A stretch of DNA of 60,915 bases from the NCBI GenBank assembly GCA_964401485.1, contig CAYNYL010000001.1, positions 2,103 through 63,017 of the forward strand, given 5' to 3'. Shown piece after piece: positions 16,580 to 60,915 of the stretch. The stretch comes from an uncultured Gammaproteobacteria bacterium. Lineage in GTDB: Bacteria; Patescibacteriota; Patescibacteriia; UBA9934. The notes below the pieces were generated by a model. The model was not told where the DNA came from, made no database searches, and saw only the letters and a list, made by a program, of their open reading frames with translations. Both the position numbers and the translations under genes were made by a program. Position 1 is the stretch's first letter, and each line of letters starts with the position of its first letter.

Positions 16580-16746
16580 AGGAGAATATTACGAGCGATG
16601 AACACAATTTGTATTCGTTATCGCTTTTGCTAGCCAAAATTTGTATTCGAATCTTAACACACCCTATTGAAAGTACAACGATCCATTGCGTGGATTGTGA
16701 ATAACAAAAATGACCCCAACGGGTCATTTATAATTCTTTGCTAGCC

Positions 16747-17994: not shown

Positions 17995-18030
17995 ACTGGT
18001 TACCGTCTATTATAGCAGAAAATGAAAAAT

Positions 18031-19719: not shown

Positions 19720-19720
19720 A

Positions 19721-20389: not shown

Positions 20390-20408
20390 ATAGTTCTATT
20401 GTAACAAA

Positions 20409-21113: not shown

Positions 21114-21114
21114 A

Positions 21115-29835: not shown

Positions 29836-29836
29836 G

Positions 29837-31552: not shown

Positions 31553-31609
31553 AATTGCTCCTATTATAAACCAAAACGCGCAAGTTGCCTTGCGCGTGCT
31601 GTGGACGAC

Positions 31610-34234
31610 TTAGCGCCAAATTCGATACTTCTTTCCCTCTTTTTGATAGCGGAGATCAAATCCGTTCACCGCCTTGCCAAAAGGCATAGAAGAATACATC
31701 GACTCCGGTAAGACCAGTACTTTTTTCCCCCACTCTTTTCCGAAAATTTCCTCCACAAGAGCGGAAGACGCAATAGGCCGAAGAAGGAGCTGGTCAGCAT
31801 CATCAACACCCTCGGACACAACCCGATCAATCAAATAGATCGTATCCCTCCCAGAAAATTGAACGAGAGTCGTTCCGTAGGCCGGAATAAGCGACGATCC
31901 AATCGGAATACCAGCAACCATATCGTCCTCAAGAGTTTGAACGCGAGCACCCCATGTTTTCAATACCTGCTCATTATAGACTGGCCTTCGGGTCATGCTA
32001 TTGTCAATGTAGTAAACATCCGGGAGTGATTTTGAACGGACAAACGCGCCAACAGTAATCGTTTTTTCTCGATCAGCACCTACACCACTTCCAAAAAGAT
32101 CCTCCTCTTGATCCCCCGAAGCGGAACTACAATCCGAAGTATTTTTGAGCGAGACCGTATCAGTCATAGTTGGAGACTGATTGCCGTGGGCCGTTCGCAC
32201 GCGCGCATAGAGCGTGTAGTCTCCTTTTCTTGCCGGAAGAAGATACGTTGAGCGCATGACAGGATAATACCCGGTCCCGATACTTGGATCATCAACCATC
32301 GTCAACGAATTTTCGTCATACCGAGTCCACTGAGCTCCGATAAAATCCGGGTCATCCGAGATCACAACATCGGAAACATACTTTCCCCCAAACTCAACCT
32401 CAATCAAGCGTTCCGAGGAACAACCATCTCCGGAGATTGCAAAGTACGGTCGATTCGGGAATGTTTGGTTGGATTGCGACGGATAGAGCGTCGATCCGTC
32501 GGTTTGTGTATAGGCCGTTTTATTTCCTGCCTCGTCAGAAACGATCACGTTATAGGTATATGTGGTATTTGGCTGAAGTCCCGAGTGTGTATACGTCACA
32601 TCATCCGTTTGCGTCGAAAGGAGGGTTCCATTTGCCTCAATATCAGCAACCGAGTCTAAGTCGGCGCCATCTTCCGCAAAGTACACTTTGTACACGAGCG
32701 CCGATTGTGCGCTCGTTTCATCCGTCGATGCCGTCCAAGAAAGATCGGAGGAGAAAAAGTCTCCATCGACCGTAATCGCTCCCCCACCCCCAACCGTTGG
32801 AGAAGTCGAATCCCCATCCGGTACGCCGTCCATAAACATAACGTAAACCGCCCCCCGACCATTTCCACCATCATCGTCAGGATATACTCCCATCGCAAAA
32901 TCAACGATATCGTCTCCATCCAAATCTCCAATGGCACCAAGGTCTCCGGCACCGACCTGATCGCTCGCGTCTAGCGTAGCGGTAAAATTCCCCGAGGTCC
33001 CCGAGATTTTCGTATACCCGGCACCACTCGCCCCAGCGGTTGCGTCAAGCGTACCATCTGGATCCATGAACAAAACGTAAATCGCTCCTGCGGTACTGTT
33101 TTCGTCATCATCACTAAACGCGCCAACCGCAAGCTCCGGAACACCATCCCCGTTCAAATCTCCAATTGTCGACACAGCGGTCCCAAACCCATCTCCAGCC
33201 TCAAGTGGCCCAGATGGAAACCCTCCGACTCCGATTGCGATTTGCTGGTATGAGGAAATTGTTCCATTCGTATTCAAGAAAAAGACGTACACACATCCAG
33301 CGTTTAAAAGCCCGGTATCGTCGAGATACGCTCCAGCGGCGATTTCGTTTCGCCCGTCTCCATTAAGATCCCCAGCACTTCCGACCGCTACGCCAAATTG
33401 ATCCGAGCCAGTCCCTGCACCCGAAAGTACCCCGGAAAAACCCGTGGTCGTGTCACTAATTTTTGCAAATCCCGTCGTATTATCAAGAGTCCCATCCGCA
33501 TCAAGGAAAAAAATGTAGACCGCGCCCATATCCCCACCGCCATCATCATCATTTGGGGCACCGACGATAAGATCAACTACGCCATCTCCGTTTAAATCCC
33601 CAATCGAGTCAAGATATCCATTTCCGATTCGGTCATTTGCGTCGAGGGTTATCGTCCAGTCCCCAACATCATCAGAAATTTTCGACCATCCAGTTCCACT
33701 CACGCCCGCCGTTGCGTCAAGCGTTCCATCAGAATCGAGGAACAATACGTAAACCGCCCCGCGATTTCCAGCCGCTCCCCCGTCATCGTCCCCAGAAGCT
33801 GATACAGCAATATCCTCAACCCCATCCCCATTCAAATCTCCAAGCGCCGCAACTCCCACACCAAAGTTGTCTGAATCATCAATCACCGCATCAAAACCAC
33901 CATCCGTATCCGAGATTTTTTGATAACTCGCAACCGTTCCATTCGCGTTCATGAACAAAATATAGACCGCTCCGCGATTTGATCCACCATCGTCATCATT
34001 TTTTGCACCAACGACCAAATCAATCACTCCATCGTCATTCAAGTCCCCAATATTCGCAACCGAGGATCCGAAGTTATCACCATCATCAAGTGTCGCCGTA
34101 AACGTTCCGTCCGTGTCCGAAATCTTTTGATACGTCAGCACCTCACCGTCAGCCATGAAGGCAAAACGCCCAACGGTAAATACAAATACTGCCACCAACA
34201 AGGGTCCGAAAATTCCAGACAGAATTTTCCTCAT
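31610..34234 (-). CDS. FG-GAP/integrin-alpha-like repeat protein with FN3 and CPR surface module
   Basis: Six GDL(N/D)GDG..D/E...G repeats; LSWTASTD...LQPNTTYTYNV FN3; VRSKSLPDVYYI module. Confidence 0.85.
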   Translation of the reverse strand: MRKILSGIFGPLLVAVFVFTVGRFAFMADGEVLTYQKISDTDGTFTATLDDGDNFGSSVANIGDLNDDGVIDLVVGAKNDDDGGSNRGAVYILFMNANGTVASYQKISDTDGGFDAVIDDSDNFGVGVAALGDLNGDGVEDIAVSASGDDDGGAAGNRGAVYVLFLDSDGTLDATAGVSGTGWSKISDDVGDWTITLDANDRIGNGYLDSIGDLNGDGVVDLIVGAPNDDDGGGDMGAVYIFFLDADGTLDNTTGFAKISDTTTGFSGVLSGAGTGSDQFGVAVGSAGDLNGDGRNEIAAGAYLDDTGLLNAGCVYVFFLNTNGTISSYQQIAIGVGGFPSGPLEAGDGFGTAVSTIGDLNGDGVPELAVGAFSDDDENSTAGAIYVLFMDPDGTLDATAGASGAGYTKISGTSGNFTATLDASDQVGAGDLGAIGDLDGDDIVDFAMGVYPDDDGGNGRGAVYVMFMDGVPDGDSTSPTVGGGGAITVDGDFFSSDLSWTASTDETSAQSALVYKVYFAEDGADLDSVADIEANGTLLSTQTDDVTYTHSGLQPNTTYTYNVIVSDEAGNKTAYTQTDGSTLYPSQSNQTFPNRPYFAISGDGCSSERLIEVEFGGKYVSDVVISDDPDFIGAQWTRYDENSLTMVDDPSIGTGYYPVMRSTYLLPARKGDYTLYARVRTAHGNQSPTMTDTVSLKNTSDCSSASGDQEEDLFGSGVGADREKTITVGAFVRSKSLPDVYYIDNSMTRRPVYNEQVLKTWGARVQTLEDDMVAGIPIGSSLIPAYGTTLVQFSGRDTIYLIDRVVSEGVDDADQLLLRPIASSALVEEIFGKEWGKKVLVLPESMYSSMPFGKAVNGFDLRYQKEGKKYRIWR

Positions 34235-34287
34235 ACGACAAGTAGTATAGCAAAAGCCAGCCCTTTCGAGCTGGCGTTATGCACATC

Positions 34288-36906
34288 CTACATCTTTAGA
34301 TCGGCACGATATTGCTTCACTGTCTTTAGGAGCGACGGATTGACCGTAAGGTCACTCGCCTGATCGACAATCTCTCCCATTGTAAGTCCGCTCAATTGTT
34401 CCGCATCAACTTGAATCACGAAGTTTGTTCTCCACTTCGCTCCGAAAATACTCGCAATCACCGCCTCGCTTGCAAATGGACGAAGCGTCGGGCGTGCAAC
34501 ATTTCCCGAGGAGCCATCGATCCAGTAGTACACCCCGGAAGCGTATAAAATCAATGTTCCCGGCTTTGGTAGTACATATTCTTCCCCAAGAGGCATCTGT
34601 CGGATCGAGGCGCGTTCGAGCGAATCAATTTGTGAAACCGGCTCCCAGGTCTGCATTACAAGCGCGGAAAGAACTCGATACGCCTCAGACCCGTCTTCAG
34701 CGATGTAGAAATATTGATTTCCATTGTTCATTCTTACAAATTCGCCGTAGTGGGCAACAAGCTCCGCTGTCCGCGTTGAGAATACTCCAGCCCTGTAAAT
34801 CACTTTATTCCCCGCCTGATCCCGAGCAACGACAACGATTGGATACTCGGTATTTACTTGCAACCCAGTTAATTCAAACGAGGTCACACCAGTAACCGTC
34901 GAAATGAGCGCGGCATTAGTCGCGACACGTGGCAATGTGTTAATCGGTAGATTTCCAGTCGGCTTGTAGATGTCATAGCTTATTTGAGATGCCTGTGACA
35001 CGTCATCCGTCGCCTCAACCCACGAAAGGCCAATCGTCGTTTCACCAACACTCACAGCCTTAATCACACGATCGGAAAGAGTCGGAGCAACCCGATCGAC
35101 AACCGCCTCGGTCGACTGCGTAAGTTGCGAATAAATCGATTTGGTCAAATCATTGTCGCGCACAATAACGGCAAACCGATACTCCGTTCCCGGCTGAAGA
35201 CCTGACACTATTTTCGAGGTGATACCGGACTGAGGTGCCCCAGCGGAAATTCCGTTCGTTTCCGCTGCCAAAACCGTCGAAAGGTCATTTGAAGAGACAG
35301 CATAGCGCACTTCATACACGAGTTGGTCAGAAGGAGTCGTGTCATCGGTAGCCGGCGACCAAGAAATCGTAACTGAATTTGACCCAACTGCGGATGATTG
35401 CAATGTTCCCGAACCAGGAACAGAAGGAGGAACAGGGAGCGGAGCACCGCCGCCGCCCGACCCTCCGGAACCACTTCCACCAGAACCCGACGATCCACAC
35501 GTCGCCTCCCCGTCAAGGAAGAGAACGTACGCCGATCCACGACCATTACCCCCATCGTCATCCGCATGCGCCCCCGCTAAAAGATCGCAAATCCCGTCCC
35601 CGTTCAAGTCGCCAAAACCTGAAAGCGCAGACCCAAAGAAATCTGTATCATCAAGTGGTGCCGTAAAGTTTCCAGCGGTATCAGAAATTTTTTGATACGA
35701 GGAGACCGTTCCATCCGAATTCATCATCGCGACATAGATTGCCCCGCGATTCGTTCCTCCATCATCGTCGCTTTGTGCGCCAATCGCAAGATCCGGAACT
35801 CCGTTATTATCCAAATCTCCAACTTTTGTAACAGCCACCCCGGCAAAGTCTCCCGCATCAAGCGTCGGATAAATATTCGTGTAATGATCGATCGTGCCGT
35901 CGGTATTTAGGAAGAAGATGAACGCTGATCCTGCATTAACGGCAGGGGCATCTTCAAGATACGCGCCGACCGCAAGCTCATTCACTCCATCGCCGTCGAG
36001 ATCACCAACGTTCGCGACGGAAACTCCGAACTGATCCGCACCCGTGCCGGCACCTGAGAGCGCCCCGACAAACCCCGTCGTCGTATCGCTTATCTTCACT
36101 TCAGAGTCAACCGTTCCGTCCGTATTCATGAACAAAATGTAAACGGCACCCAAATCCAGTCCGCCATCATCATCATTTTGCACTCCAACCGCAAGATCGA
36201 TCGTTCCATCTCCATCGACGTCCCCCATGTTTGCCACCGACATTCCGAATAGATCCTGGTTATCTAGAGTGCCGCCAAATCCGCCGTCCGTATCCGAAAT
36301 CTTTTGATAGGACGCGACCGTCCCATCCGTGTTCATAAATAGAATATAGAGCGCACCACGATCAACTCCGCCATCATCGTCTCCAGTTGCACCAACCGCG
36401 ATATCGATCACTCCGTCACTATTCAGGTCTCCGATGCCTGCAATTGCCATTGCGGAAAATCGATCATTATCATCAAGCGTCGCGGTAAATCCGCCTTCCG
36501 TATCAGAAATCTTTTGATAGGACGCGACCGTCCCATCCGTGTTCATGAATAGAATATAGACCGCCCCACGATTCGCTCCCCCATCATCGTCACCCCGCGC
36601 CCCAAGGGCGATATCAGCAACGCCATCCTCGTTCAAATCGCCAATGACGCTCACGGCGTGACCAAGATTGTCGGTATCATCGAGCGTCGCGGTAAATCCG
36701 CCTTCCGTATCAGAAATCTTTTGATAAGACAAAACCTCACCGTTTGCTTGAAGCGCAATTCCCCACGAGATGACAAACGCAACAACCGCGGCAACCGCGG
36801 TCATTCCAAGGACCATGCCCGGCGAGAACGGAGAGAATCGAACCGTTTCTTTTTTCCTTAACGATTTACCCGATTTCTTTTTCGCCGCCGACCGTGTTTT
36901 TTTCAT
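34288..36906 (-). CDS. FG-GAP repeat protein with two FN3 domains and CPR surface module
   Basis: Six FG-GAP-like repeats; ISWSPATDD...LQPGTEY; LSWVEATDD...LQVNTEY. Confidence 0.85.
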   Translation of the reverse strand: MKKTRSAAKKKSGKSLRKKETVRFSPFSPGMVLGMTAVAAVVAFVISWGIALQANGEVLSYQKISDTEGGFTATLDDTDNLGHAVSVIGDLNEDGVADIALGARGDDDGGANRGAVYILFMNTDGTVASYQKISDTEGGFTATLDDNDRFSAMAIAGIGDLNSDGVIDIAVGATGDDDGGVDRGALYILFMNTDGTVASYQKISDTDGGFGGTLDNQDLFGMSVANMGDVDGDGTIDLAVGVQNDDDGGLDLGAVYILFMNTDGTVDSEVKISDTTTGFVGALSGAGTGADQFGVSVANVGDLDGDGVNELAVGAYLEDAPAVNAGSAFIFFLNTDGTIDHYTNIYPTLDAGDFAGVAVTKVGDLDNNGVPDLAIGAQSDDDGGTNRGAIYVAMMNSDGTVSSYQKISDTAGNFTAPLDDTDFFGSALSGFGDLNGDGICDLLAGAHADDDGGNGRGSAYVLFLDGEATCGSSGSGGSGSGGSGGGGAPLPVPPSVPGSGTLQSSAVGSNSVTISWSPATDDTTPSDQLVYEVRYAVSSNDLSTVLAAETNGISAGAPQSGITSKIVSGLQPGTEYRFAVIVRDNDLTKSIYSQLTQSTEAVVDRVAPTLSDRVIKAVSVGETTIGLSWVEATDDVSQASQISYDIYKPTGNLPINTLPRVATNAALISTVTGVTSFELTGLQVNTEYPIVVVARDQAGNKVIYRAGVFSTRTAELVAHYGEFVRMNNGNQYFYIAEDGSEAYRVLSALVMQTWEPVSQIDSLERASIRQMPLGEEYVLPKPGTLILYASGVYYWIDGSSGNVARPTLRPFASEAVIASIFGAKWRTNFVIQVDAEQLSGLTMGEIVDQASDLTVNPSLLKTVKQYRADLKM

Positions 36907-52013: not shown

Positions 52014-52790
52014 CTACTTCGCAAGTGTTCGATAGGTAAGAACATTAAACACCGCCATTACACCAATGTATACGAAGAATCCAACGAGCCCCACTATACC
52101 CGCAATACTGATACCGAGCATACTAAGCCCCGCACCAATAACCGAAAGCGCCATAGCGTCGCTCCCAAGTGCAGAAGCTGTGCTTCCAAGAAGAAGTCCG
52201 ATTCCAAAAACGACGTAAACCGGGTAAAGGATCACATATGTTCCAACATTTGCGAGTTGACCCATAAACCCCTGGAGGCCGAACAAATCCCAACGATATC
52301 CAAGCGTCGCCTTTGAACTAGCATGCAACGCTTCGATCGGTCCCATTCCGCGATCAAGAACATAGTACGGAGCAAGCATAAATCGTGCCATCCACATAAA
52401 TCCCGGCACAACAAGCAGGAGGAGCCCACCAATCACGATAACTCCGTAAAGAAAATTCACAGCGAGAAACGAGAGTGCCGTTTCACGATGAGCGAAAATT
52501 GCACCGACCGGGAGTGGTTGGTCATCAGCAACCGCAAGAAAAATATGCCCCCAAGCATTTGCAATGATTGCGACCGGAATAAGACAGAGTAGCAATCCAA
52601 GGAAAATGATCACACCTCCAGTGATATCTCCAATGACGGCGCCTATCAATAGAACAAAGAGCGGTGGGATACTAACAAGAATCGATGACAAGAGTCCGAG
52701 CCCAACAAGCGCTAACATGCGCTTTTTAAAAAGCATCCACGAAGAGCTCATAAGTGCGCTTACGTGAAATTTTGGTTGCGACTGCAACAT
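52014..52790 (-). CDS. Integral membrane protein (DUF975-like)
   Basis: LLVVPGFMWMARFMLAPYYVLDRGMGPIEALHAS pattern; multiple TM helices. Confidence 0.7.
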   Translation of the reverse strand: MLQSQPKFHVSALMSSSWMLFKKRMLALVGLGLLSSILVSIPPLFVLLIGAVIGDITGGVIIFLGLLLCLIPVAIIANAWGHIFLAVADDQPLPVGAIFAHRETALSFLAVNFLYGVIVIGGLLLLVVPGFMWMARFMLAPYYVLDRGMGPIEALHASSKATLGYRWDLFGLQGFMGQLANVGTYVILYPVYVVFGIGLLLGSTASALGSDAMALSVIGAGLSMLGISIAGIVGLVGFFVYIGVMAVFNVLTYRTLAK

Positions 52791-52866: not shown

Positions 52867-52943
52867 TGCGGGGTAGAGCAGCCCGGTAGCTCGTCTGGCT
52901 CATAACCAGAAGGTCATTGGTTCAAATCCAATCCCCGCAACCA
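52867..52943 (+). tRNA. tRNA-Met(CAT), initiator type
   Basis: Cloverleaf, CAT anticodon, A11:U24, T-loop TTCAAAT, encoded CCA; promoter TTGACC-17-TATAGT upstream. Confidence 0.95.
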
Positions 52944-52948
52944 AAAAT

Positions 52949-52976
52949 CCGTCTATGGAACTATAGGCGGTTTTTT
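52949..52976 (+). terminator. Terminator after tRNA-Met
   Basis: CCGTCTAT-GGAACT-ATAGGCGG-TTTTTT. Confidence 0.8.
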
Positions 52977-53033
52977 GTTTGGTTTGCGGTTTTAATATAT
53001 GGCTTGTTTTAGCCATTTTTATAGCATTTTCCA

Positions 53034-53062
53034 TTGACAAAAGCCGTTTTTTATGCTATAGT
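53034..53062 (+). promoter_or_regulatory. sigma70 promoter
   Basis: TTGACA-AAAGCCGTTTTTTATGC-TATAGT. Confidence 0.8.
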
Positions 53063-53109
53063 AATTCTCCGTTCTTTGGGGCTCATCCCAAGACGGACCG
53101 GAGGACATT

Positions 53110-53223
53110 ATGTCCAAGTACGCCCCGACCTCCGCCGGCCTTTCGACCAACACCAACTTCGGGGCGATCCTCGTGATCGCCCTGTACCTCGACGGGTTCC
53201 TGACCGGCACCTTGCCGTTCTGA
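53110..53223 (+). CDS. 37-aa hydrophobic peptide (not in ORF track)
   Basis: MSKYAPTSAGLSTNTNFGAILVIALYLDGFLTGTLPF*; GGAGG SD; nearly all codons end in G/C. Confidence 0.7.
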   Translation: MSKYAPTSAGLSTNTNFGAILVIALYLDGFLTGTLPF

Positions 53224-53267
53224 ACCGTCGCCTCGTCGGCAGTCCCTGAAAAGACATGCCGGCGAGC

Positions 53268-53306
53268 CCCTCAATGCGCATGAACCAAGTTCGTGCTTAT
53301 CGAGGG
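53268..53306. repeat. Structured repeat, copy 1
   Basis: CTCAATGCGCATGA-ACCAAGT-TCGTGCTTATCGAG. Confidence 0.85.
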
Positions 53307-53357
53307 ACCTTTCCCAAATCAACCCCAGCGCCGCTTTGCGCGGCAACGGAGGCCACC

Positions 53358-54245
53358 ATGGCCCGTTCGAACATCATCAGCCTCTCCCTCGCCGCCACCC
53401 TCTTCGGGGGTTGCGACCCCGCGGATGTGTACAACATCACCGTGGAGAGCGACGAGGCTGACACGTTCGTCGACATCGACGTCACGGTGACCCCGGCGTC
53501 CGAGGAGACCGAGAGCGACTGCGAGCCGTTCGTGCATGAGCACAGCGGCGTGCGGTTCAACACCGCGTCGCGCCCGACCGTCGAGTTCAACTCGACCCTG
53601 ACGGGCTTCGCGACCGACATCGGAGATTCGCTGGACATCGGCGGCGCCTTCCACACGGTCGGCGGATGCGGAGAAGGGGTCACGATCGAACAGATCGCGA
53701 TCAACATCCGCAACCTCGAGAGCGTCGACCTCCTGACCTCGACCGTGGCGACCGTCGTGATCGACGGGCACAGGATGAGCGTCGAATGCACGCCCGTGAC
53801 CTACCCCGACGGTCTTGTCGAGTACTGGTGCATCATGGATCTCTCCGTCCAAGACGGCGAGTTCGATGTCCTGCCCAACTCGAACGGCGTCCCGTTCCAG
53901 CTGGTCCTCGACGAGCTCCCCGAGCTCAAGAGCGGCGAGCAGTCGACGGTGACCCTCTACTACAAGTGGAGCGACATCGAGACCGGGAATGGGTACGTAG
54001 ACGGCGGCGGATGGGCCGTGATCGACAGCGACAGCTTCGTGATCGACCCCTACTACGCCGACGAGTGGTGCTACACTCGCGAGCGTCGCCTCGCGGACAA
54101 CGACGGCGACACCTACGGGGATCCGAACAACTACCTGTTCGTCGCCGTGTGCGATCCGTGGCAGGACGGCTACGTGGACTGGACCGAGGGTCGTGACGAC
54201 TGCGACGACAACAACGCGGACGTCTACCCCGGCAACGGTTGCTGA
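53358..54245 (+). CDS. Lipoprotein with C-terminal MopE-like putative metal-binding motif
   Basis: Lipobox FGG-C; DNDGDTYGDP; DDCDDNNADVYPGNGC; SD GGAGG. Confidence 0.8.
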   Translation: MARSNIISLSLAATLFGGCDPADVYNITVESDEADTFVDIDVTVTPASEETESDCEPFVHEHSGVRFNTASRPTVEFNSTLTGFATDIGDSLDIGGAFHTVGGCGEGVTIEQIAINIRNLESVDLLTSTVATVVIDGHRMSVECTPVTYPDGLVEYWCIMDLSVQDGEFDVLPNSNGVPFQLVLDELPELKSGEQSTVTLYYKWSDIETGNGYVDGGGWAVIDSDSFVIDPYYADEWCYTRERRLADNDGDTYGDPNNYLFVAVCDPWQDGYVDWTEGRDDCDDNNADVYPGNGC

Positions 54246-54308
54246 CACTGTCGTAGCGACAGCTTCGCTACACCGACCGCTGGCCATGCAACGTGCATGG
54301 TCGGCGGG

Positions 54309-54348
54309 TCACTCAATGCGCATGACAATGGTCGTGCCTATCGAGTGA
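54309..54348. repeat. Structured repeat, copy 2
   Basis: CTCAATGCGCATGA-CAATGG-TCGTGCCTATCGAG, followed by a long T run. Confidence 0.85.
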
Positions 54349-54375
54349 TTTTTTATTTTTCATGGCATTTTTGGC

Positions 54376-54404
54376 TTGACAAAAGCCCATTTTTCCAGTA
54401 ATAT
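54376..54404 (+). promoter_or_regulatory. sigma70 promoter for 54454
   Basis: TTGACA-AAAGCCCATTTTTCCAG-TAATAT. Confidence 0.7.
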
Positions 54405-54453
54405 GCTCGGTTGCGTTTTTGCAACCCCAGCCTTAAATGGCTATGGAGTTCCT

Positions 54454-55170
54454 ATGTTCCGCACCCCCGCCACCGTTGTCGTGGCGTTCGCCCTTTCGGC
54501 CTGCACCGCTCCCGTCGTCCCCGAGGACGACTCGGCGAGCGAGACGGGCGGATTCGAGGACACCGACCCGGTCGAGCCCCTCCCCGAGGACCCGATCGTC
54601 GTCACCGTCGCCCTATCCTTCATCCCCCTCCCCGACGGCGTCACCTACGCGCGCCAAGGGGAGCCGGCGCCGCTCGGCGGGATCGACATCGCGGTCGAGC
54701 CGACCGACACCCGTGTGATCTTCGAACGGATCGCACCGAAGATCGCGCTTGCGATCGAGGAGTGGCTAGAGATTCCCTCCGCCTTCTCGACCGATCCGAC
54801 GATCCCGAATCGTGACCGTCTCGTCGGCGAGTGCACCCTGCAGGATCTGTGGGGTACAGTCTACGGGGGACCGGTCGGGATCGAAGGCTGGGACCTCACC
54901 TTCAACGACGGCTTCGTTGTCTACGGAGGTGAATCGATCACCTTCTCCACTGCGTGCACCCCGCCCGACGGTACGAACCCGTACCCCTTCGCCTTCGGGA
55001 TCGATCTCCCGATCGAAGAAGACGGCGAGATCGAGGCGTACGCGGAAGACAAGGAGGGCAACCGGCTCGAACTCCAGTTCGAGTACCGAAACATGAACGG
55101 GCTCCCCTACCCGTCCTCGTACGTGCTCCTCCCGTACGACCTCGGCTGGCCGGGCGATTCGCCAAACTGA
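54454..55170 (+). CDS. Lipoprotein of unknown function
   Basis: MFRTPATVVVAFALSA-C lipobox; acidic linker; beta-rich domain. Confidence 0.8.
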   Translation: MFRTPATVVVAFALSACTAPVVPEDDSASETGGFEDTDPVEPLPEDPIVVTVALSFIPLPDGVTYARQGEPAPLGGIDIAVEPTDTRVIFERIAPKIALAIEEWLEIPSAFSTDPTIPNRDRLVGECTLQDLWGTVYGGPVGIEGWDLTFNDGFVVYGGESITFSTACTPPDGTNPYPFAFGIDLPIEEDGEIEAYAEDKEGNRLELQFEYRNMNGLPYPSSYVLLPYDLGWPGDSPN

Positions 55171-55300
55171 TCGCCCGAGCGCGCTGCCCCGGCATCCCCT
55201 GAAAAGGATGACCGGGGCATTTGAATTTCGAGCTGGTACTTGCAAAAAGTGCTATAATAGCGTAAGATACGGTACTGTTCCTTCAACCTTGGAGACCCGA

Positions 55301-56104
55301 ATGCTTTGGCTCATTCTCGTTGCCTGTTCGATACCGAACGTCGAGACCGCGGAGTACAACCCGCCCCACGTCGTCGTCGACAAGGCTTCGGAAACGATGC
55401 CCTTCGTCGAGGACTACCCGCCATGGGAAGACACGGGAGTCGATAGCGACACCGAGGTCGACTCGGATACCGCAATCGATACCAGTGGCGACACCGGCCT
55501 CGACTCAGACACGGAAATCGACTCGGACGTCGACAGCGACACCGAAGTCGCCCCTCCGTCGGCTTCCCTCTCCCTGCGCTTCCTCCCGTCGGAGGAACGA
55601 AGCATCGAGTGGACGTCGTACGGCGACATCGCCGATCACGGCACGGTCGTCGTCGAAGCGAACCTGAGCGAAGGAGCTCGAATCGCGCTGACCGAAATCG
55701 CGATCCCGCGATTCATCGGCACCTCGAGCCCCGCGACCTACGAAGGGGATCCCGTCTACGACGACGCGGGCGAGTACACCTGCGCCCTCGTCGACGAGGA
55801 CGGAAACTCGGTCGGAAGACGCTCCGCGTCAACGAACTACGGCGTGAACCTCGTGTTCACGTCGAGCTCAACCCGACTCCTGACGCTCCGTTGCGAAACA
55901 CGGATCGTCGCCTTCGCCCCTCGCTCGAGCGCGATCGACCTCCCGACCTCACTCGTCGCCACCGCGACGGTGGACGGGGAAGTGATCCCGCTCACGCTCT
56001 CCTACGCCGAGCATAACATCAACTCCGGCACGGCGACCTACGCGGTCTCCGTGATCCCGGAGCCTCTCGGAGGCTATGATACCGGCGCCGATACCGGCTT
56101 CTAG
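55301..56104 (+). CDS. Lipoprotein with Asp/Ser/Thr repeat linker
   Basis: MLWLILVA-C; DTGVDSDTEVDSDTAIDTSGDTGLDSDTEIDSDVDSDTEV; extended -10 TGC-TATAAT at 55250-55258. Confidence 0.78.
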   Translation: MLWLILVACSIPNVETAEYNPPHVVVDKASETMPFVEDYPPWEDTGVDSDTEVDSDTAIDTSGDTGLDSDTEIDSDVDSDTEVAPPSASLSLRFLPSEERSIEWTSYGDIADHGTVVVEANLSEGARIALTEIAIPRFIGTSSPATYEGDPVYDDAGEYTCALVDEDGNSVGRRSASTNYGVNLVFTSSSTRLLTLRCETRIVAFAPRSSAIDLPTSLVATATVDGEVIPLTLSYAEHNINSGTATYAVSVIPEPLGGYDTGADTGF

Positions 56105-56203
56105 CCAACTGCCCCACCCCTCAAAAGGTGGGGCGCTTTGTTTACAAAAAATCGCTATTGGTGTATCATGGTCCATCGCTCCTTCCCCAACCCCGAGGTT
56201 CTA

Positions 56204-56821
56204 ATGATACTTCTAATCGGGCTTCTGTCCGGTTGCTATCAATTCCACCTGCCGGAAGTCAACATTCCTTCCGAACCAGGCAAGCTCGTTCTTGTGGAAG
56301 CTCGTTTTTCCGAGGGTGAATTCGGCCGAACAGCGAATGGCCTCTACGACTTTGGGGTCATGACCTTCAAGATCATGACCGAAGAAGACATCACGGTTGC
56401 TATCTCCGGAATCACCCTCCTTGTCGAACGGCGCGACCACAACGGCTCGGGAGCATTTATCCCGTCCCACGCGAACGACTTCTTCGACGAATGCGGACTC
56501 TACGAGTACGGAACGGTGACCCCCGCCTTCGTTGGAGAAGCCGGTCCCTATGCGGTCGGCTTCCATGGACGCCTCGATGGGCTCACGAACAACACCGAGG
56601 TTTCACTCCGAATCTTGTGCTCCCTAGAGGACGGCGAACCCGGCAAGGAGGCCGACCTCGCCTTCGACTTGCCCCTCGAATCCGGGATCCTCCTCTCTGC
56701 AGTGCGAGACGACGGAACGGCGATCGATCGACTGTCCTCGATCACGTACCTCCCCGTGATCACGAACCTGCCCTCGGTTGGCTGGGCCGTTCACTTCCCA
56801 CCGGCCCCACCTACCTACTAA
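56204..56821 (+). CDS. Lipoprotein of unknown function
   Basis: MILLIGLLSG-C; promoter TTTACA-17-TATCAT at 56141-56169. Confidence 0.75.
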   Translation: MILLIGLLSGCYQFHLPEVNIPSEPGKLVLVEARFSEGEFGRTANGLYDFGVMTFKIMTEEDITVAISGITLLVERRDHNGSGAFIPSHANDFFDECGLYEYGTVTPAFVGEAGPYAVGFHGRLDGLTNNTEVSLRILCSLEDGEPGKEADLAFDLPLESGILLSAVRDDGTAIDRLSSITYLPVITNLPSVGWAVHFPPAPPTY

Positions 56822-56936
56822 CCGCCTCCGTCAGGACGCTTCCCAGAAGCCGCCTCTTCACCGCCTTGACCCAACGAGGCGGTCTTCTTTTTGCCAAAAT
56901 TCCACCTACGCGCTAGGCTAAAAACAGGAGGTGTTC

Positions 56937-57245
56937 ATGTCACCCTACGTTAGCCTCGCCGAACTTCGCGAAGACTTGCTCGTGCGCGTAAAGCCCGACA
57001 CATCCCTCTTCGAGCTGATCGAGTACCTGTTCGAAACCGAAGATGGCGGGATCGTTCTCCGCCTCGACTTCGTTCGCGACCACCCGGGAGCCTTCTCCCG
57101 GTTCGCGAAGTACATGATGGTCCTTCGCCGGTCGACCTACACGGTCACAACCGCTCTCGTCGAGTACCGCTCCCCGAACCCGCCGCACAACTGGATCGAG
57201 GAGGACGGCGACGCGACGGTCGCGTTCTACATCATGCGCTCGTAA
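56937..57245 (+). CDS. Hypothetical cytoplasmic protein
   Basis: SD AGGAGG 5 nt before ATG; promoter TTGCCA-17-TAGGCT at 56891-56919; terminators on both sides ending GGCGGTCTTCTTTTT. Confidence 0.7.
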   Translation: MSPYVSLAELREDLLVRVKPDTSLFELIEYLFETEDGGIVLRLDFVRDHPGAFSRFAKYMMVLRRSTYTVTTALVEYRSPNPPHNWIEEDGDATVAFYIMRS

Positions 57246-57346
57246 TGCGCCCCTGACCCCAACTACCGCCTCGCTTGTGGCCAACGCCACTCCAGAAGAT
57301 CGCCATTCGCATCTTCCGCCAACAACAAAGCAGGGCGGTCTTCTTT

Positions 57347-58072
57347 TTACATAACATTGCCCCGCTCCTTTACATACAAACAAAACGCACACCCCTCCCC
57401 CGCCTCCGGCAAAACCCCGCCCTCGAGCACCCCCTTAATCTCCAAAATCCTCCCCGCGACCCATGAATCATCCCCATCATACGCAATCACCCGCACGTCA
57501 AATTCAAGCTTCCCGTTAAACGCCTCCTCGTCCGGCCTCCCCGTACAATAGACAAAATACGCCCGATCGCTAACCGGAAGCCCGTTCCCCCGAAGAAGCC
57601 ACTGATACACCTCGATCTGCCGTTTGTACGCCCCGTGCCACTCGCTATCAAGCGCCGTAACCGGCTCCCCCTTCGCCGTCGCCTTATAATCAACAACGAT
57701 ATACCGCCCGTCCTCCCCAATCCATAAATCATCAATCGCCCCCGAAACAACAAGCCCCGTCGCCTCGTCCCGTACCTCCACCCCTTCGAAATTCTCCCGC
57801 CAACGGTTAAGAAGCTCGTGCCTAGCCGGCACCGCCGCGACTCCGTAGGCTTCCTGGAGCGGATGTGCTGTCCCGTTCGCCCGATGGACGTCAAATTCGG
57901 CCTTTAAAAGCGAGTCAACGGCTTTGTTAAGGTTAAACGGTGGTCCCGACGGTCGTTTTACTCCAAGGACATTGTCGAGATAGAAACATCTCCGGCATTC
58001 CCCGAAGAGCTCAATCTTCGACCTCGACAGCCTCCACCTCGCTCCTCCATAATTCCAATTTGCACTGCGCAT
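57347..58072 (-). CDS. PD-(D/E)XK nuclease, RecB/Cas4-like, with four conserved Cys
   Basis: LSRSKI...CRRCFY, GAIDDLW, VVDYKAT, QIEVY, CAFC. Confidence 0.88.
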   Translation of the reverse strand: MRSANWNYGGARWRLSRSKIELFGECRRCFYLDNVLGVKRPSGPPFNLNKAVDSLLKAEFDVHRANGTAHPLQEAYGVAAVPARHELLNRWRENFEGVEVRDEATGLVVSGAIDDLWIGEDGRYIVVDYKATAKGEPVTALDSEWHGAYKRQIEVYQWLLRGNGLPVSDRAYFVYCTGRPDEEAFNGKLEFDVRVIAYDGDDSWVAGRILEIKGVLEGGVLPEAGEGCAFCLYVKERGNVM

Positions 58073-58115
58073 AGTACGGTTAGTGTACCATCCTTTTCAT
58101 GCTAAAATCCGAGCT

Positions 58116-58376
58116 ATGCGCCTTATCGACAAAAAAGACACCGTCTTCCGGTATCTAAAATCCCTCCCCAAGGGCAAAACCGTGACCTACAAGGAGGTCG
58201 CCCTCGCCTGCGGTCTTTCGAGCCCCCGCCATGTCGGCCATATCCTCCAAATGAACGAAGACCCCGACCTCGTCCCGTGCTACAAAGTCATCCTCTCATC
58301 CGGCCATCTCGCCCGCGGCTACAAATTCGGCGGCCCCGAGGAACAAGCGCGGAGGTTGAGGGAGGATCAAAAATAA
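58116..58376 (+). CDS. MGMT family DNA alkyltransferase (C-terminal domain only)
   Basis: GKTVTYKEVA, PRHVG, VPCYKVI (PCHRV-like), GYKFGG. Confidence 0.88.
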   Translation: MRLIDKKDTVFRYLKSLPKGKTVTYKEVALACGLSSPRHVGHILQMNEDPDLVPCYKVILSSGHLARGYKFGGPEEQARRLREDQK

Positions 58377-58433
58377 AGGTCATAAAAAAGTCATTTTCAG
58401 AACGCGGAATTCGTGCTAAATTCCGAAATGCAT

Positions 58434-58806
58434 TCGAACTTTAACAAGGTCGGCGAAAATGGTCGGGGCCCTTTTAAATTTCACGCTTGGATCAGCCTAG
58501 CTCCAAATCTCCCCCAAGGACGCTTTTAAGAGCTTCCTTGGAGGGGATTTCTTGGAGCAAGTCCCCGAGTATTAATTCATTAGCTCCCCAATACCACTAT
58601 GTCTTATTTTAAGATATACCGGGATCATGCGCTACAATACCGTTGGTCGCTTTACGCGGCAAACAGGGAAATCGTAGCCACAAGCGAAGCATACACTACC
58701 AGGTGGAGTGCTAAGCGATCCGCGGAACGTGTCAAGCAAATCGCATCAAGCGCTTTCATTAGCGAATAGTGCGATTTCACCCTTCGCCGACCTTATTAAA
58801 GCTCGA
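58434..58806. repeat. 24-bp inverted repeats (58434-58457 and 58783-58806) bracketing a hairpin and a YegP-like ORF
   Basis: TCGAACTTTAACAAGGTCGGCGAA versus reverse complement TCGAGCTTTAATAAGGTCGGCGAA: 22/24 identical. Confidence 0.85.
58599..58769 (+). CDS. YegP/DUF1508 family protein, single domain, 56 aa (not in ORF track)
   Basis: MSYFKIYRDHALQYRWSLYAANREIVATSEAYTTRWSAKRSAERVKQIASSAFISE*; matches the F.I..D....YRW.L.A.N.EI.A.SE.Y pattern. Confidence 0.88.
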   Translation: MSYFKIYRDHALQYRWSLYAANREIVATSEAYTTRWSAKRSAERVKQIASSAFISE

Positions 58807-58922
58807 CTACTCGTCCTAAGCAATATAGCCCGTATTTCATGCTACAGATTTAAATGCAAAACTTGCGTACCAATCATCTTAAAGACTAATTCTCTGTTTA
58901 AAATTAAAACGCTACGAAACCA

Positions 58923-59447
58923 CTACTCAACCTTGACGTAGCTTGCACGCAATTTGTTTACCAGCTCCAGCATAGCGGCAAATGACGATTCAGCCTTCGG
59001 CAAAAAAAGTTCACCTCGCGCCTTGGAAAGATGCAAAGTATTTCTAATCCCCTGTAATTCAGCTATTTCCTTAGTTAACTTACTACCTAAGAATTTCTCC
59101 TGTTTTTTAATCATATCCTGTAACCAAATACGCGACTCTTGTTTCTTTTTAGATGACCGATATGCAATTATTAAATCTTGTTTTTGTTTTTTAAACTCGC
59201 TCGGCAAAACTTGAAGGTGCCTATATTGCACATCTTCGTGCACGATGTTTTCTCGTCGTGTTCGGAACAAGAGGAGCGCTTCGATTACGGAGACATTGTA
59301 CAGGATGATCGTTCGAACGGTTTCATCTTTAAATTCATCATCGATGCTTTGTGCTAGCATCCAGAGAAAGCCCGCGAACTTAACCGACTCGATAATATTA
59401 TACCGAAGTGCCTTTGGGGTAATAAACGCAAAGGCGTCTCTTTCCAT
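58923..59447 (-). CDS. Hypothetical protein, possible HEPN-like RNase
   Basis: Helical; SVIEALL early and IRNTLH near the C-terminus; low GC. Confidence 0.55.
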   Translation of the reverse strand: MERDAFAFITPKALRYNIIESVKFAGFLWMLAQSIDDEFKDETVRTIILYNVSVIEALLLFRTRRENIVHEDVQYRHLQVLPSEFKKQKQDLIIAYRSSKKKQESRIWLQDMIKKQEKFLGSKLTKEIAELQGIRNTLHLSKARGELFLPKAESSFAAMLELVNKLRASYVKVE

Positions 59448-59450
59448 AAA

Positions 59451-59645
59451 TTATTTTGATCGACTTGTTTCGATCATCTGTATAAGCTTCGAGAGTGAGG
59501 GCGCACCTTCATTTCGTAACACGGTCGACAATTTAGCATCACCGCGGTAACCCAAATCAATCTTGTACTGTTTTTCAATAGTTTTAACCAACGTGTCACC
59601 ACGCTTCTTTTGAATTCGGCCGTTTTTTGCTCGTGATGCAGGCAT
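59451..59645 (-). CDS. Small basic protein, 64 aa
   Basis: MPASRAKNGRIQKKRGDTLVKTIEKQYKIDLGYRGDAKLSTVL; in operon with the RM genes. Confidence 0.75.
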   Translation of the reverse strand: MPASRAKNGRIQKKRGDTLVKTIEKQYKIDLGYRGDAKLSTVLRNEGAPSLSKLIQMIETSRSK

Positions 59646-59672
59646 ACTTAAAGTGTATATAACGAGAGCAGC

Positions 59673-60593
59673 TTAGTCCAATAATAAATCCACAAACTTC
59701 ACCGCTCGATTCTTTTCCCAATCCATTATCTTCACATAACGACCATTATGTTTGCGGGGGCGCCGACACTTACAACCCTCGCACTCATATTTTTCTATTC
59801 GATCCGGCAGTTCACCGAAAAGCGTTAGTGCACCAGGAATTATTTTACTTTCGTGATGACAGCTCATTGGAATCACGCACCGCACACCATCCATCTGAAA
59901 AATATTCCAACTAATAATCTCAGCGAACTCTTCTCGTACGCCCACTGTTGGCTTTTGATTAAATTTTGCTTCGTAGTAATCAATTAGCGTATAGAGCAAG
60001 TTTTCACGGGCGATGAGTACGTTATCGCCTTGCCATTCATATCCATAACTCGCTTTGTATGCTTCTTTTGCCCACGTCAGCCAGTCTTTTTTATTGTCGC
60101 AGTAACGAGAGACAACTTTGAGTTTACGATCTAAAAAACCAACCCTACTTGGAATACTAATCAGTACACCGTGAGCAGTAGGGTTATAGCGGGTGACTAT
60201 AAAAGGTGCTTCGCCACAGGTAATTTCAAGCTTAAGTTCACGTACGTAGTCCCGCCAGTTATTTTTGTTTGGCTGGTACGGCTCAAGGGCTTTGTTCATT
60301 TGTTCAACAGTCTTGAGTGGAGTGAACACTTCGGCTTTTTCTTTAGTGCGATGACGTTGCTCCTCTAGACTCTTTGCGGCACGGGGTTGAATCAGAAGAC
60401 GGTACTTCCCTGTTACAAGATCTGGCTTGATGTATTTGTCTGGAGCAAATGCTTTTCCGAATTTCTCATAGGAATCAGTTGCCCAGATGATGTTCTTTTT
60501 TGTGGTGCGGTCGACTAGTAAAGTATCAAGTAAGACACCCTGACGGCGGAGGGTGCTTTCTTTAATATCGATATCATACGGAGCCGCCACCAT
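59673..60593 (-). CDS. Restriction-modification accessory subunit (methylase-like, no NPPY motif)
   Basis: LLVDRTTKKNIIWAT, AEVFTP, LEITCGEAPF, YGYEWQGDNVLIAREN, IISWNIFQMDG. Confidence 0.8.
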   Translation of the reverse strand: MVAAPYDIDIKESTLRRQGVLLDTLLVDRTTKKNIIWATDSYEKFGKAFAPDKYIKPDLVTGKYRLLIQPRAAKSLEEQRHRTKEKAEVFTPLKTVEQMNKALEPYQPNKNNWRDYVRELKLEITCGEAPFIVTRYNPTAHGVLISIPSRVGFLDRKLKVVSRYCDNKKDWLTWAKEAYKASYGYEWQGDNVLIARENLLYTLIDYYEAKFNQKPTVGVREEFAEIISWNIFQMDGVRCVIPMSCHHESKIIPGALTLFGELPDRIEKYECEGCKCRRPRKHNGRYVKIMDWEKNRAVKFVDLLLD

Positions 60594-60596
60594 AGC

Positions 60597-60915
60597 TTAA
60601 GACATCGGCTTCACATTCTTTTCGATGAAGTCTATTTCGGCTTTATCGAGCCCGTACTTTTTGTATAGTTGCTTATCAATCTCAGCAACTGACTTGGACC
60701 AATCAATATCTGACTTCTTTGTGAAGTCCTGTAGGGGTACATTTTTCCATGTCCCCTTCGGGTTATCTTGTGTGACTTTTAATGTTCCTAACATAGCTCT
60801 ACAGAACTTCGTTTTGATATATTTGAGACAACTATGGGCTTCACCTTCTGTAGCAAAAGAACCAATCTGCAAAAATGAGTATGTACAACCCGTAAGGGGT
60901 TCTCCCGTAAGGGGT
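60597..60915 (-). CDS. C-terminus of an Eco57I-like (type IIG-related) RM methyltransferase, 5' end outside window
   Basis: LKYIKTKFCRAMLGTLKVTQDNP...VPLQDF...IDKQLYKKYGL..EIDFIE; frame open to the window edge. Confidence 0.85.
   Translation of the reverse strand, partial: PLTGEPLTGCTYSFLQIGSFATEGEAHSCLKYIKTKFCRAMLGTLKVTQDNPKGTWKNVPLQDFTKKSDIDWSKSVAEIDKQLYKKYGLDKAEIDFIEKNVKPMS

Follow-up and report, generated by a model that had tools for sequence, protein, structure and literature searches.

Flexible genomic islands linked to tRNA genes combine a fixed tRNA site with deviant composition, variable content and surface products. In the vpma and vsp loci of Mycoplasma (the Mycoplasma loci considered here are M. 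agalactiae vpma, M. bovis vsp, M. hyorhinis vlp and M. pulmonis vsa), the 5' untranslated region (5'UTR) and the signal peptide are conserved and the mature parts are not, with recombination occurring within 72 nt of the start codon (PMC2268961). Integron arrays and clusters of attC sites lacking integrases (CALINs) carry imperfect palindromic repeats of 60-140 nt and strain-variable orphan cassettes (PMC4889954). Within the Candidate Phyla Radiation (CPR; Patescibacteria), populations of Peribacteria differ mainly in extracellular putative attachment proteins (PMC4736985). The locus described here lies in a 60,915-nt stretch of contig CAYNYL010000001.1 (hereafter the window) and, by open reading frame (ORF) list and sequence, is an island of six co-oriented genes on the + strand, directly 3' of tRNA-Met(CAT) at a fixed site. 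With a probability of roughly 0.6, we interpret it as a hypervariable island of surface-lipoprotein genes whose diversity arises through homologous recombination at conserved regulatory modules. ORFs that are unrelated or barely related to each other share their flanking non-coding modules and signal-peptide codons; between related genomes, whole ORFs are replaced, inserted or deleted, and the breakpoints fall in these shared modules. The novelty would lie in finding a mycoplasma-like variable surface-lipoprotein locus in CPR bacteria, for which no report was found in the CPR/Patescibacteria group; the logic of a shared 5'UTR and signal peptide appears to be the one already known, and an earlier note on this DNA, which spoke of an undescribed system, overstated the case, since this logic matches that of the Mycoplasma vsp/vpma loci (PMC2268961).

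Genes and composition of the island

The gene set of the window is typical of CPR bacteria (SmpB, tmRNA, IF3, L20, FtsZ, FtsA, DprA, TopA, RelA, ParA and ParB, together with giant proteins that have an N-terminus resembling type IV secretion system (T4SS) pilins, and FG-GAP proteins), and a TopA-anchored scan of species-representative genomes assigned the organism to Patescibacteria, where Candidatus Uhrbacteria UBA12070 was one of its named neighbours. The window was compared with five short contigs (most 1.6-3.7 kb) and one metagenome-assembled genome (MAG), identified below by L numbers. The island, its left anchor and the first gene to its right are as follows:

52867..52943, + strand: tRNA-Met(CAT), left anchor of the island; initiator-like, with a C1:A72 mismatch
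52949..52978, + strand: tRNA terminator hairpin and T-run, 100% identical in L005
53110-53223, + strand: pep37, hydrophobic peptide of 37 aa, single transmembrane-like; first cistron
53358-54245, + strand: lipoA, 295 aa; canonical lipoprotein (LFGGC, Cys19) of an orphan family
54454-55170, + strand: lipoB, 238 aa; canonical lipoprotein (ALSAC, Cys17)
55301-56104, + strand: lipoC, 267 aa; LVAC motif, Cys9, atypically short signal peptide
56204-56821, + strand: lipoD, 205 aa (217 aa from the alternative start 56168); LLSGC lipobox
56937-57245, + strand: cyt102, 102 aa, without signal peptide and without family match; missing from L089
57347..58072, - strand: gene for a PD-(D/E)XK (Cas4-like) nuclease, G+C content (GC) 0.56; missing from L089

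All six co-oriented genes listed in the earlier note are present on the + strand, with the starts of lipoB, lipoC, lipoD and cyt102 corrected by one base. The tRNA next to the array was likewise confirmed, and its initiator features are partial: the C1:A72 mismatch is present, and sequence reading found only 2/3 of the initiator-type G-C pairs in the anticodon stem. Because L089 lacks the PD-(D/E)XK gene and has the MGMT-like gene next in line, the nuclease gene is counted as part of the variable region. GC is 0.61 in the island vs 0.50 in the remainder of the window, and GC at third codon positions (GC3) reaches 0.69-0.95 in the island genes vs 0.44-0.63 in core genes (TopA, RelA, ParA, ParB and others), in agreement with the very GC-rich ORFs that had been claimed. 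The AT-rich spacers said to alternate with them were found in two places (52944-53109 and 54348-54453, both GC 0.39), but not in the remaining spacers (GC 0.53-0.62). Both tRNA adjacency and deviant composition, as in tRNA-linked islands, are thus present, and a search of the window for a second copy of the tRNA 3' end (last 18-25 nt, <=3 mismatches) found none.

Shared modules and gene replacement in relatives

The island is built from two kinds of unit. J units are promoterless ORFs tied to the upstream gene by a conserved junction of ~130 nt, which in the aligned inter-cistronic regions reads hairpin A, hairpin B, leader, hairpin C, GGAGG, ATG. In P units, a conserved sigma-70-like promoter with a structured 5'UTR (a shared module of ~90 nt) leads into an ORF, which is followed by a 3' hairpin or terminator bearing a conserved CCTSAAAA-type loop. 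The corresponding elements in the window are:

53034..53062, + strand: promoter P1, TTGACA-17-TATAGT with TG extension, 11/12 positions; drives pep37-lipoA
53233..53265, + strand: hairpin A type 1, loop CCTGAAAA, bulged A, no U-tract
53267..53306, + strand: hairpin B copy 1, CTCAATGCGCATGAAC-CAA-GTTCGTGCTTATCGAG; 110 bits
53307..53357, + strand: leader, GGGACCTTTCCCAAAT, then hairpin C at 53330-53344 (GCCGC-TTTGC-GCGGC), then the Shine-Dalgarno (SD) sequence GGAGG at 53348-53352
54277..54307, + strand: hairpin A type 2, CCGCTGGCCATGCA-ACG-TGCATGGTCGGCGG
54308..54363, + strand: hairpin B copy 2, an 'orphan' fused to a T-run; 36.6 bits
54376..54404, + strand: promoter P2, TTGACA-17-TAATAT
55185..55219, + strand: lipoB 3' hairpin, loop CCTGAAAA, bulged A; then ATTTGAATTT
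55250..55258, + strand: promoter P3 of lipoC, an extended -10 (TGCTATAAT) with no good -35; found by reading, missed by the two-hexamer scan
56110..56135, + strand: lipoC 3' hairpin and terminator, loop CCTCAAAA
56141..56169, + strand: promoter P4, TTTACA-17-TATCAT; conflicts with the alternative lipoD start 56168
56860..56892, + strand: intrinsic terminator after lipoD, ending in GGCGGTCTTCTTTTT, the first copy of a 15-nt repeat
57257..57348, + strand: structured 3' segment of 92 nt, ending in the second GGCGGTCTTCTTTTT; predicted bidirectional terminator

Two Logan contigs, L001 and L002 (SRR13355620/SRR13355621), carry the same array as the window; all other loci differ from it by whole genes. 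In L005 (SRR29476910), the tRNA end and P1 are identical and the N-terminus of the peptide is a variant; the junction and signal peptide of the window (MARSNIISLSLA..LFGGCDPAD) recur but lead into a different mature protein of 421 aa, which is followed by a junction, an extra lipoprotein that the window does not have (X266), lipoB (93% identity) and lipoC. The closest genome, L009 (MAG CAZBFR01; TopA 81% and ParA 98% identity), has kept the same P1, carries an unrelated hydrophobic peptide of 38 aa in the place of pep37 and a lipoA that is 89% identical under another signal peptide, and continues with a junction and another different lipoprotein. In L004 (SRR16481186), a junction, a cytoplasmic ORF of 125 aa (cyt125) and a further junction precede a lipoA homologue with 58% identity, behind which hairpin A follows. 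L090 (SRR8893623) reads junction, X266 (93% identical to the L005 copy), P2 module, the new lipoprotein Z221, a short junction, the new lipoprotein V232, the P2 module again and a lipoB homologue (47% identity); the P2 module, also common to L005, is thus found here in two copies, each before a different gene. In L089, lipoC and lipoD are followed directly by the MGMT-like gene. J-type units were seen as pep37-lipoA-X266/Y, cyt125-lipoA and Z221-V232, whereas lipoB, lipoC and lipoD have promoters of their own. The island occupies the same site in genomes with a synonymous divergence (dS) of ~1 in core genes; in relatives with 60-65% TopA identity, the site is occupied by tRNA-Met, tRNA-Met and tRNA-Leu, without a GC-rich island.

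The type 1 leader with a MARSNII.. signal peptide precedes both lipoA and the cassette protein P0003, the type 2 leader with MRSI.. precedes X266 and the cassette protein Y, and lipoB and Z221 both follow the P2 5'UTR with MFR..; this MFR.. N-terminus is also that of V232, where it comes after a short J-type junction. In the comparison of the window with L005, homology is lost and regained as follows:

52940-53064: 100% identity
53065-53150: diverged
53151-53425: ~96% identity
beyond ~53500: unrelated

The ~96% stretch takes in the last part of the peptide gene together with the junction and signal peptide, and homology is back at the lipoA stop codon. Against L009, the break falls within the signal peptide; against L089, 96% nucleotide identity in lipoC gives way to 76% amino acid identity in lipoD, with the drop in the P4/5'UTR region. 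The indels of cyt102 and of the PD-(D/E)XK gene are bounded by the two GGCGGTCTTCTTTTT terminators, the first of which (56860..56892) is the left edge of the cyt102 presence/absence polymorphism; the 92-nt segment that ends in the second is kept in L089 (96% identity) although both neighbouring genes are missing there. X266 is missing from the window from exactly after the last base of hairpin B, with no obvious flanking homology; in the window, hairpin B copy 2 thus lacks the leader and cassette that follow it in L005, L009 and L090, and this orphan copy with its T-run is now probably the terminator of the P1 operon.

Gene order is therefore not identical among the relatives, which differ by presence/absence and replacement of whole genes. 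The proposal of a cassette library for surface variation stands as far as the variation is concerned; autonomous mobile cassettes, as far as can be seen, do not. Most breaks lie in shared promoter, leader or signal-peptide sequence, which is what would be expected of homologous recombination in a rapidly diverging paralogous family.

A sharp change in GC at the tRNA gene and a Logan assembly (SRR13355621) that breaks inside this gene could also be read as an artefact of assembly or binning, with GC-rich foreign DNA misjoined to a CPR contig, an alternative that the earlier note had named. It is effectively refuted: L002 spans a core gene, the tRNA, the island and the low-GC right flank at 100% identity, and in L005 and L009, which come from other samples, the same tRNA adjoins other versions of the island, so that independent assemblies confirm the junctions. 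The break in SRR13355621 coincides with a group I intron site (52901), which explains the branch in the assembly graph without a chimera; for the same reason, a reading of this contig break as heterogeneity of the island was dropped. In two relatives, L009 and L012, the anticodon loop of the same tRNA-fMet is split by a group I intron of ~650 nt (Rfam RF00028, 59.8 bits), at 17748-18398 in L009 (core 18171-18366) and 15574-16218 in L012 (core 15602-15827), with the insertion point corresponding to window position 52901; the L009 intron contains a PD-(D/E)XK_5 homing-endonuclease ORF (17767-18216; Pfam E = 9e-42), and the tRNA copy in the window is intron-free.

Mosaic divergence of neighbouring genes

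Nei-Gojobori estimates of dS, and of the ratio of nonsynonymous to synonymous divergence (dN/dS), differ sharply between neighbouring segments:

Window vs L009, ParA, ParB, RelA: dS 0.72-1.05, dN/dS 0.02-0.10
Window vs L009, lipoA: dS 0.147, dN/dS 0.40
Window vs L005/L089, lipoB: dS 0.136, dN/dS 0.25
Window vs L005/L089, lipoC: dS 0.10, dN/dS 0.23
Window vs L005/L089, lipoD: dS 0.90, dN/dS 0.18
Window vs L005/L089, MGMT-like gene: dS 0.67, dN/dS 0.17

On a single contig (L089), the adjacent genes lipoC and lipoD differ ~nine-fold in their dS to the window, a contrast between neighbours that points to recombinational exchange; lipoD is as diverged as the flanking DNA and, on this evidence, appears to have stayed in place. 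Overall, dN/dS ranges from 0.18 to 0.57 in cassettes vs 0.02-0.10 in core genes. As a control for GC3 pressure, only C<->G differences at four-fold sites were counted; these number 7/215 in lipoB and lipoC vs 10/60 in lipoD (p = 7e-4), and 7/117 in lipoA vs 36/285 in core genes (p = 0.05). The explanation that GC3 constraint alone keeps dS low was rejected on this basis for lipoB and lipoC relative to lipoD, and only marginally for lipoA. Taken together, the mosaic of dS values and the C<->G counts indicate that segments of the array were recently exchanged between genomes with much older backgrounds.

These data also bear on the possibility of a local gene family that changes by tandem duplication, deletion and fast divergence only, with the junctions purely as RNA regulatory elements under purifying selection and no exchange between lineages. 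The faint paralogy between cassettes (see below), the conserved and structured 5' and 3' modules, and the raised dN/dS are compatible with such a family, yet it does not account for dS values of 0.10 and 0.90 in adjacent lipoC and lipoD on one contig, for 125 nt of AT-rich non-coding DNA that are 100% identical between genomes whose MGMT-like genes differ at dS 0.67, or for the combination of the same mature lipoA with different signal peptides and of the same signal peptide with different mature proteins; we regard it as unlikely.

Four-fold sites have a further peculiarity: C<->G transversions dominate among the substitutions in cassette genes (lipoA and the L004 and L090 homologues), and transitions dominate in core genes. 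Between lipoA copies whose proteins are 58% identical, 26/38 four-fold differences are of the C<->G type. A spectrum dominated by such changes argues for sustained G/C pressure at third codon positions; with GC3 maintained over long divergence, the high GC is not a fading foreign signature. The candidates for the upkeep of GC3 near 0.9 are GC-biased gene conversion at a recombination hot spot, or codon selection.

Predicted products and their relationships

The products typically consist of a signal peptide with lipobox, a stalk that is acidic, Pro-rich or composed of DSDT repeats, and a beta-rich head. LipoA has a Cys-rich tail, DGDxYGD...CDDNNADVYPGNGC; lipoB is predicted to combine an acidic, Pro-rich stalk with an all-beta domain; lipoC has an acidic repeat stalk of the DSDTEVDSDT type and a beta-rich body; and lipoD is a remote relative of the lipoB family. 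Four lipobox proteins had been proposed for the window, and a lipoprotein rule of the PROSITE type bears this out for lipoA and lipoB, the only window genes to pass from their called starts; lipoD passes only from the upstream ATG at 56168, and lipoC (MLWLILVAC, Cys9, no basic residue) fails. At the other loci, P0003, X266 and the lipoB homologue of L090 pass as well, Z221 does so apart from its Cys at position 14, and V232 is atypical.

Pairwise BLASTP among the four lipoproteins of the window gave nothing significant; faint paralogy between cassettes became visible only after variants from other loci were added. LipoA matches P0003 (31% over 236 aa, E = 5e-15), Z221 matches V232 (27% over 195 aa), the lipoB homologue of L090 matches lipoD (30% over 90 aa), and X266 and lipoA have their N-termini in common. 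The C-terminal domain of X266 is in turn related to residues 168-280 of the product of a core gene at 11906-13009 (40% identity, E = 6e-22). This core gene, on the - strand, has ordinary GC and encodes a membrane-anchored protein without Pfam match. With a paralogue in the core genome, the cassettes look home-grown in CPR and not host-derived; the suggestion of host mimicry in the earlier note is accordingly not borne out, the proteins being lineage-restricted orphans with one cassette domain paralogous to a gene of the organism's own core.

As far as sequence searches reach, the products appear to be restricted to this lineage. LipoA forms three 90%-identity clusters among 5.8 billion sequences and lipoD two, and a full HMMER scan of 1.84 billion sequences found two representatives of lipoB. 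Pfam and NCBIfam assign no family to any of the six island genes, although the acidic repeat of lipoC gave sub-threshold NCBIfam matches to MSCRAMM adhesin models; PADLOC and PHROGs had no match for the six genes, and blastn against phage and plasmid collections gave no match to the island. Rfam, at the gathering threshold and at E <= 1, recognised the tRNA only, leaving leader and junction unmatched. Neither the hairpin-B pattern in JGI metagenomes and IMG/VR, nor the lipoB profile in JGI metagenomes, yielded a match, and the literature search found no paper on Uhrbacteria lipoproteins or on the run and MAG accessions involved.

Orphan status, a tRNA gene next door, a rise in GC from ~0.50 to 0.61 with GC3 up to 0.95, and absence from more distant relatives would all fit an ordinary foreign island, that is, a block from a high-GC donor that was inserted once at the tRNA and then passively inherited, its motifs being relics of the donor. 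Such an origin is very unlikely, however, in view of the promoters, which are of the organism's own type, the cassette domain with a paralogue in the core genome, a gene content that is different in every relative sampled, the mosaic divergence, and a GC3 that was kept over long divergence and did not drift to the genome average; neither an integrase, among the ~45 longer ORFs scanned, nor a repeat of the tRNA 3' end was found in the window, and the phage, plasmid, IMG/VR and JGI collections hold no match.

Promoters, terminators and the three-hairpin junction

A two-hexamer consensus scan found 8 promoter-like sites vs 1.3 +/- 1.2 expected, among them P1, P2 and P4; the island promoters match the organism's own type, and T-runs in them are only 5-6 nt long. 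The 5'UTR downstream of P2 is conserved up to 54453 and contains the hairpin GGTTGC-N6-GCAACC. A promoter of its own had been claimed for each gene except the one at 53358; this holds for P1, P2 and P4, whereas lipoC has an extended -10 only and the candidate for cyt102, by sequence reading, is at best weak (TTGCCA-17-TAGGCT). The 3' hairpins claimed for all genes were confirmed: a stable hairpin lies behind each island gene (fold z-scores from -2.8 to -6.2). In P units, the stems of these hairpins differ and the CCTSAAAA-type loop is common to them; CCCTSAAAAG occurs in 3 copies, always as the loop of a 3' hairpin (0.28 expected; 0/100 shuffles reach 3). Between the window and its L090 orthologue, the lipoB 3' hairpin shows a compensatory change from A-U to G-C. 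The recurrence of non-coding motifs between dissimilar genes was thus substantiated in the form of exact repeats, shared loops and shared modules; CTCAATGCGCATGA and TTGACAAAAGCC, for instance, were each found in 2 exact copies in a search of the window, both within the island only.

Within the junction, hairpin A has 12-14 G-C-rich pairs, no U-tract, and two sequence types; type 2 folds at -26.4 kcal/mol on the sense strand vs -17.3 on the antisense strand, and this greater sense-strand stability speaks for a function in the transcript. For the junction folds, z-scores range from -3.1 to -6.2. Hairpin B is formed by 16 pairs and contains two internal mismatches, whose positions are constant in most copies; over 9 copies, 97.9% of the possible pairs are formed and one pair covaries (G-C, A-U or U-G). 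RNAalifold recovers hairpin B and hairpin C, the latter with the general form GCCGC-N5-GCGGC. A reading of the leader as peptide-coding (MRMNQVRAYRGTFPK) was rejected, as it is in frame in some copies and out of frame or stopped in others. The hairpins of junction and 5'UTR probably act in mRNA, with roles in protecting or processing 3' ends, in termination and at the start of translation.

A covariance model of the junction, run on the window and 27 Patescibacteria loci, matches only array sites, bar one weak match of 18.5 bits before the very GC-rich gene 7151-8035; all junction copies lie on one strand, and the matches that the model gives on the minus strand reflect the palindromic form of these sites. 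Gene 7151 has a promoter homologous to that of the array (cATTGACAAAAAGGCC...TGCTACTAT), and its hairpin-C/SD leader and its terminator resemble those of the array. It is part of a second GC-rich patch (window 6000-9800) that adjoins tRNA-Asp (9833-9909) and contains a gene for a HAD/S6PP-like hydrolase (6098-6943, GC 0.60), the gene for a 70%-GC membrane protein at 7151-8035, and an ORF of 504 aa (8210-9724). The array-like signals at gene 7151 indicate that this cassette style extends beyond a single locus.

Promoterless ORFs that lie in one orientation downstream of a single promoter, separated by a structured repeat of ~130 nt, raise the question of an integron-like capture array, in which the three-hairpin junction, above all hairpin B, would be a folded single-strand site cut by a recombinase encoded elsewhere, so that promoterless cassettes enter and leave behind P1, as an analogue and not a homologue of attC sites and CALINs. 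The contents of the cassettes are unrelated and include the non-lipoprotein cyt125 of L004; the window contains an orphan junction without cassette, with a break exactly at the 3' base of hairpin B; the constant positions of the hairpin-B mismatches recall the extrahelical bases of attC; and integrase-less CALINs are common in other bacteria (PMC4889954). The attC core (RYYYAAC...GTTRRRY at the base of the stem) was found by eye in none of nine junction copies, however, and no hairpin has an R''/R' core at its base; the AAC/GTT of hairpin B is located at the loop end (apex), not at the stem base. Pfam searches found no tyrosine or serine recombinase or integrase in ~45 of the longer ORFs in the 60.9-kb window, a set that takes in all of those around the island, and none was present in the precomputed Pfam annotation of genes on related Logan contigs, in accordance with the earlier observation that attC consensus sites and a local integrase are missing. 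Moreover, most breakpoints are in signal-peptide codons, promoters and 5'UTRs instead of at one fixed position, the P-type units come with promoters and terminators of their own, G-U pairs favour hairpin A on the sense (mRNA) strand, and the cassettes are faint paralogues of each other and not captured foreign genes. An integron-like mechanism is distinctly unlikely on this balance, and is kept as a minority explanation because the X266 boundary is precise at hairpin B. It is also quite improbable, to about the same degree, that the three-hairpin junction is the site of an undescribed, non-integron cassette exchange, with a recombinase encoded elsewhere that cuts hairpin B to insert or excise promoterless ORFs behind the promoter beside the tRNA, and with the high GC3 as the footprint that very frequent recombination leaves through GC-biased gene conversion.

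Proposed mechanism and points against it

Under the favoured interpretation, a hypervariable surface-lipoprotein island recombining at its regulatory modules, most products would be exported and lipid-anchored at the lipobox cysteine, so that the cell surface would carry all-beta heads raised on acidic or proline-rich stalks; the lipoproteins would be accompanied by small membrane peptides and, occasionally, by cytoplasmic proteins. The conserved modules may serve as portable homology for RecA-type recombination, within the array as well as with DNA from related lineages, and the gene set would be reshuffled at the population level. Diversifying selection would act on surface proteins that are used in host attachment or seen by phages or hosts.

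As a caveat, several points weigh against this interpretation. We infer expression, lipidation, surface exposure and the recombination pathway alike, and although DprA is encoded in the window, no competence or recombination function is tied to the locus. The left edge of X266 is better explained by a site-specific event, or one promoted by a hairpin, than by ordinary homologous recombination. By the C<->G count, the low dS of lipoA between the window and L009 is only marginally below that of core genes. No second complete array is among the comparison loci, and L005 and L089 come from one sample but possibly not from one genome. The signal peptides of lipoC and of lipoD, when the latter is read from its SD-proximal start, are atypically short. 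The structure models are of low quality: the all-beta model of lipoB has a confidence score (pLDDT) of 54, and its best PDB matches, type II cohesin and CBM3, are not significant (E ~2e-3, template modelling score 0.27-0.39); the model of lipoA is poor (pLDDT 32). Finally, covariation in hairpin B is thin; with 11/16 pairs invariant and one copy that breaks the covarying pair, the evidence for structure is mostly sequence conservation. The variation observed lies between genomes.

Genomic surroundings and significance

The right flank (57347-60915, and L001 beyond the window end) is a neighbourhood of the defence type. It begins with the variably present Cas4-like PD-(D/E)XK nuclease and an MGMT-type DNA-binding protein without full methyltransferase, and continues with a type II methyltransferase (59673-60593; PADLOC E = 3e-94), a 1331-aa Eco57I/ResIII protein and a NucS-like protein; in L089, the genes downstream of the MGMT-like gene are other than those in the window. 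To the left of the tRNA, the window has one DUF975/YciC-like membrane-protein gene (52014-52790) where L009 has two in tandem (16336-17980), and a scan of GTDB species-representative genomes found no relative of this DUF975-like neighbour. A run of large extracellular proteins is encoded at 18805-36906 on the - strand; it includes three bacterial TSP3-repeat proteins, two 870-aa FG-GAP/fn3 proteins, and proteins of 2906 and 571 aa with T4SS-pilin-like N-termini and Ig-like domains.

CPR bacteria, or Patescibacteria, are thought to live attached to other cells; to our knowledge, hardly any of the molecules that mediate this cell contact have been described. Orphan proteins that are predicted to be exported, lipid-anchored and reshuffled between close relatives are good candidates for host-contact molecules; alternatively, the island products may be under counter-selection by phages and hosts. 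Further arrays in metagenomes can be sought with the conserved junction and promoter modules as a search handle. The mycoplasma solution to surface variation would have an analogue, by convergence, in an unrelated lineage with reduced genomes, and a GC3 of ~0.9 that is kept in a genome with a GC3 of ~0.5 offers a compact natural test of GC-biased gene conversion vs codon selection.

Comparison with known systems

Compared with flexible, tRNA-linked islands, the locus agrees in having different content at the same site in close relatives (window, L005 and L009; L089) and in having restriction-modification genes next door. It differs in that no integrase or att repeat was found in the window, in its gene-by-gene variation at internal modules, and in its apparently old age. 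With integron and CALIN arrays it shares, in its J units, co-oriented promoterless ORFs behind one promoter, repeats that are similar within the array, and orphan content that varies between strains; unlike these arrays, it has no R''/R' core and no IntI was found among the ORFs scanned, its breakpoints fall at several positions, many of its units carry their own promoter and terminator, and its cassettes are mutually paralogous. The attachment proteins of Peribacteria are very large, cysteine-rich and vary in place, in contrast to the small lipoprotein cassettes with shared junction modules of the present locus.

The resemblance to the Mycoplasma loci extends further. In both cases, a host-dependent bacterium with a small genome has a single chromosomal cluster of lipoprotein genes; the members agree closely in 5'UTR and signal-peptide codons and resemble each other little or not at all in their mature parts; the ~70 nt upstream of the start codon contain the proposed recombination substrate; and the repertoire differs between strains. 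Even the adjacent tRNA gene has its counterpart at the vpma locus (PMC2268961). The Patescibacteria locus departs from this pattern in that all genes are co-oriented and several have promoters of their own, that no adjacent Xer-type recombinase and no inverted copies for promoter-swapping inversions were found, that long homopolymer tracts are missing, and that the variation seen is variation between genomes. The proteins are unrelated to those of Mycoplasma, and the three-hairpin inter-cistronic junction and the extreme GC3 are found only here.

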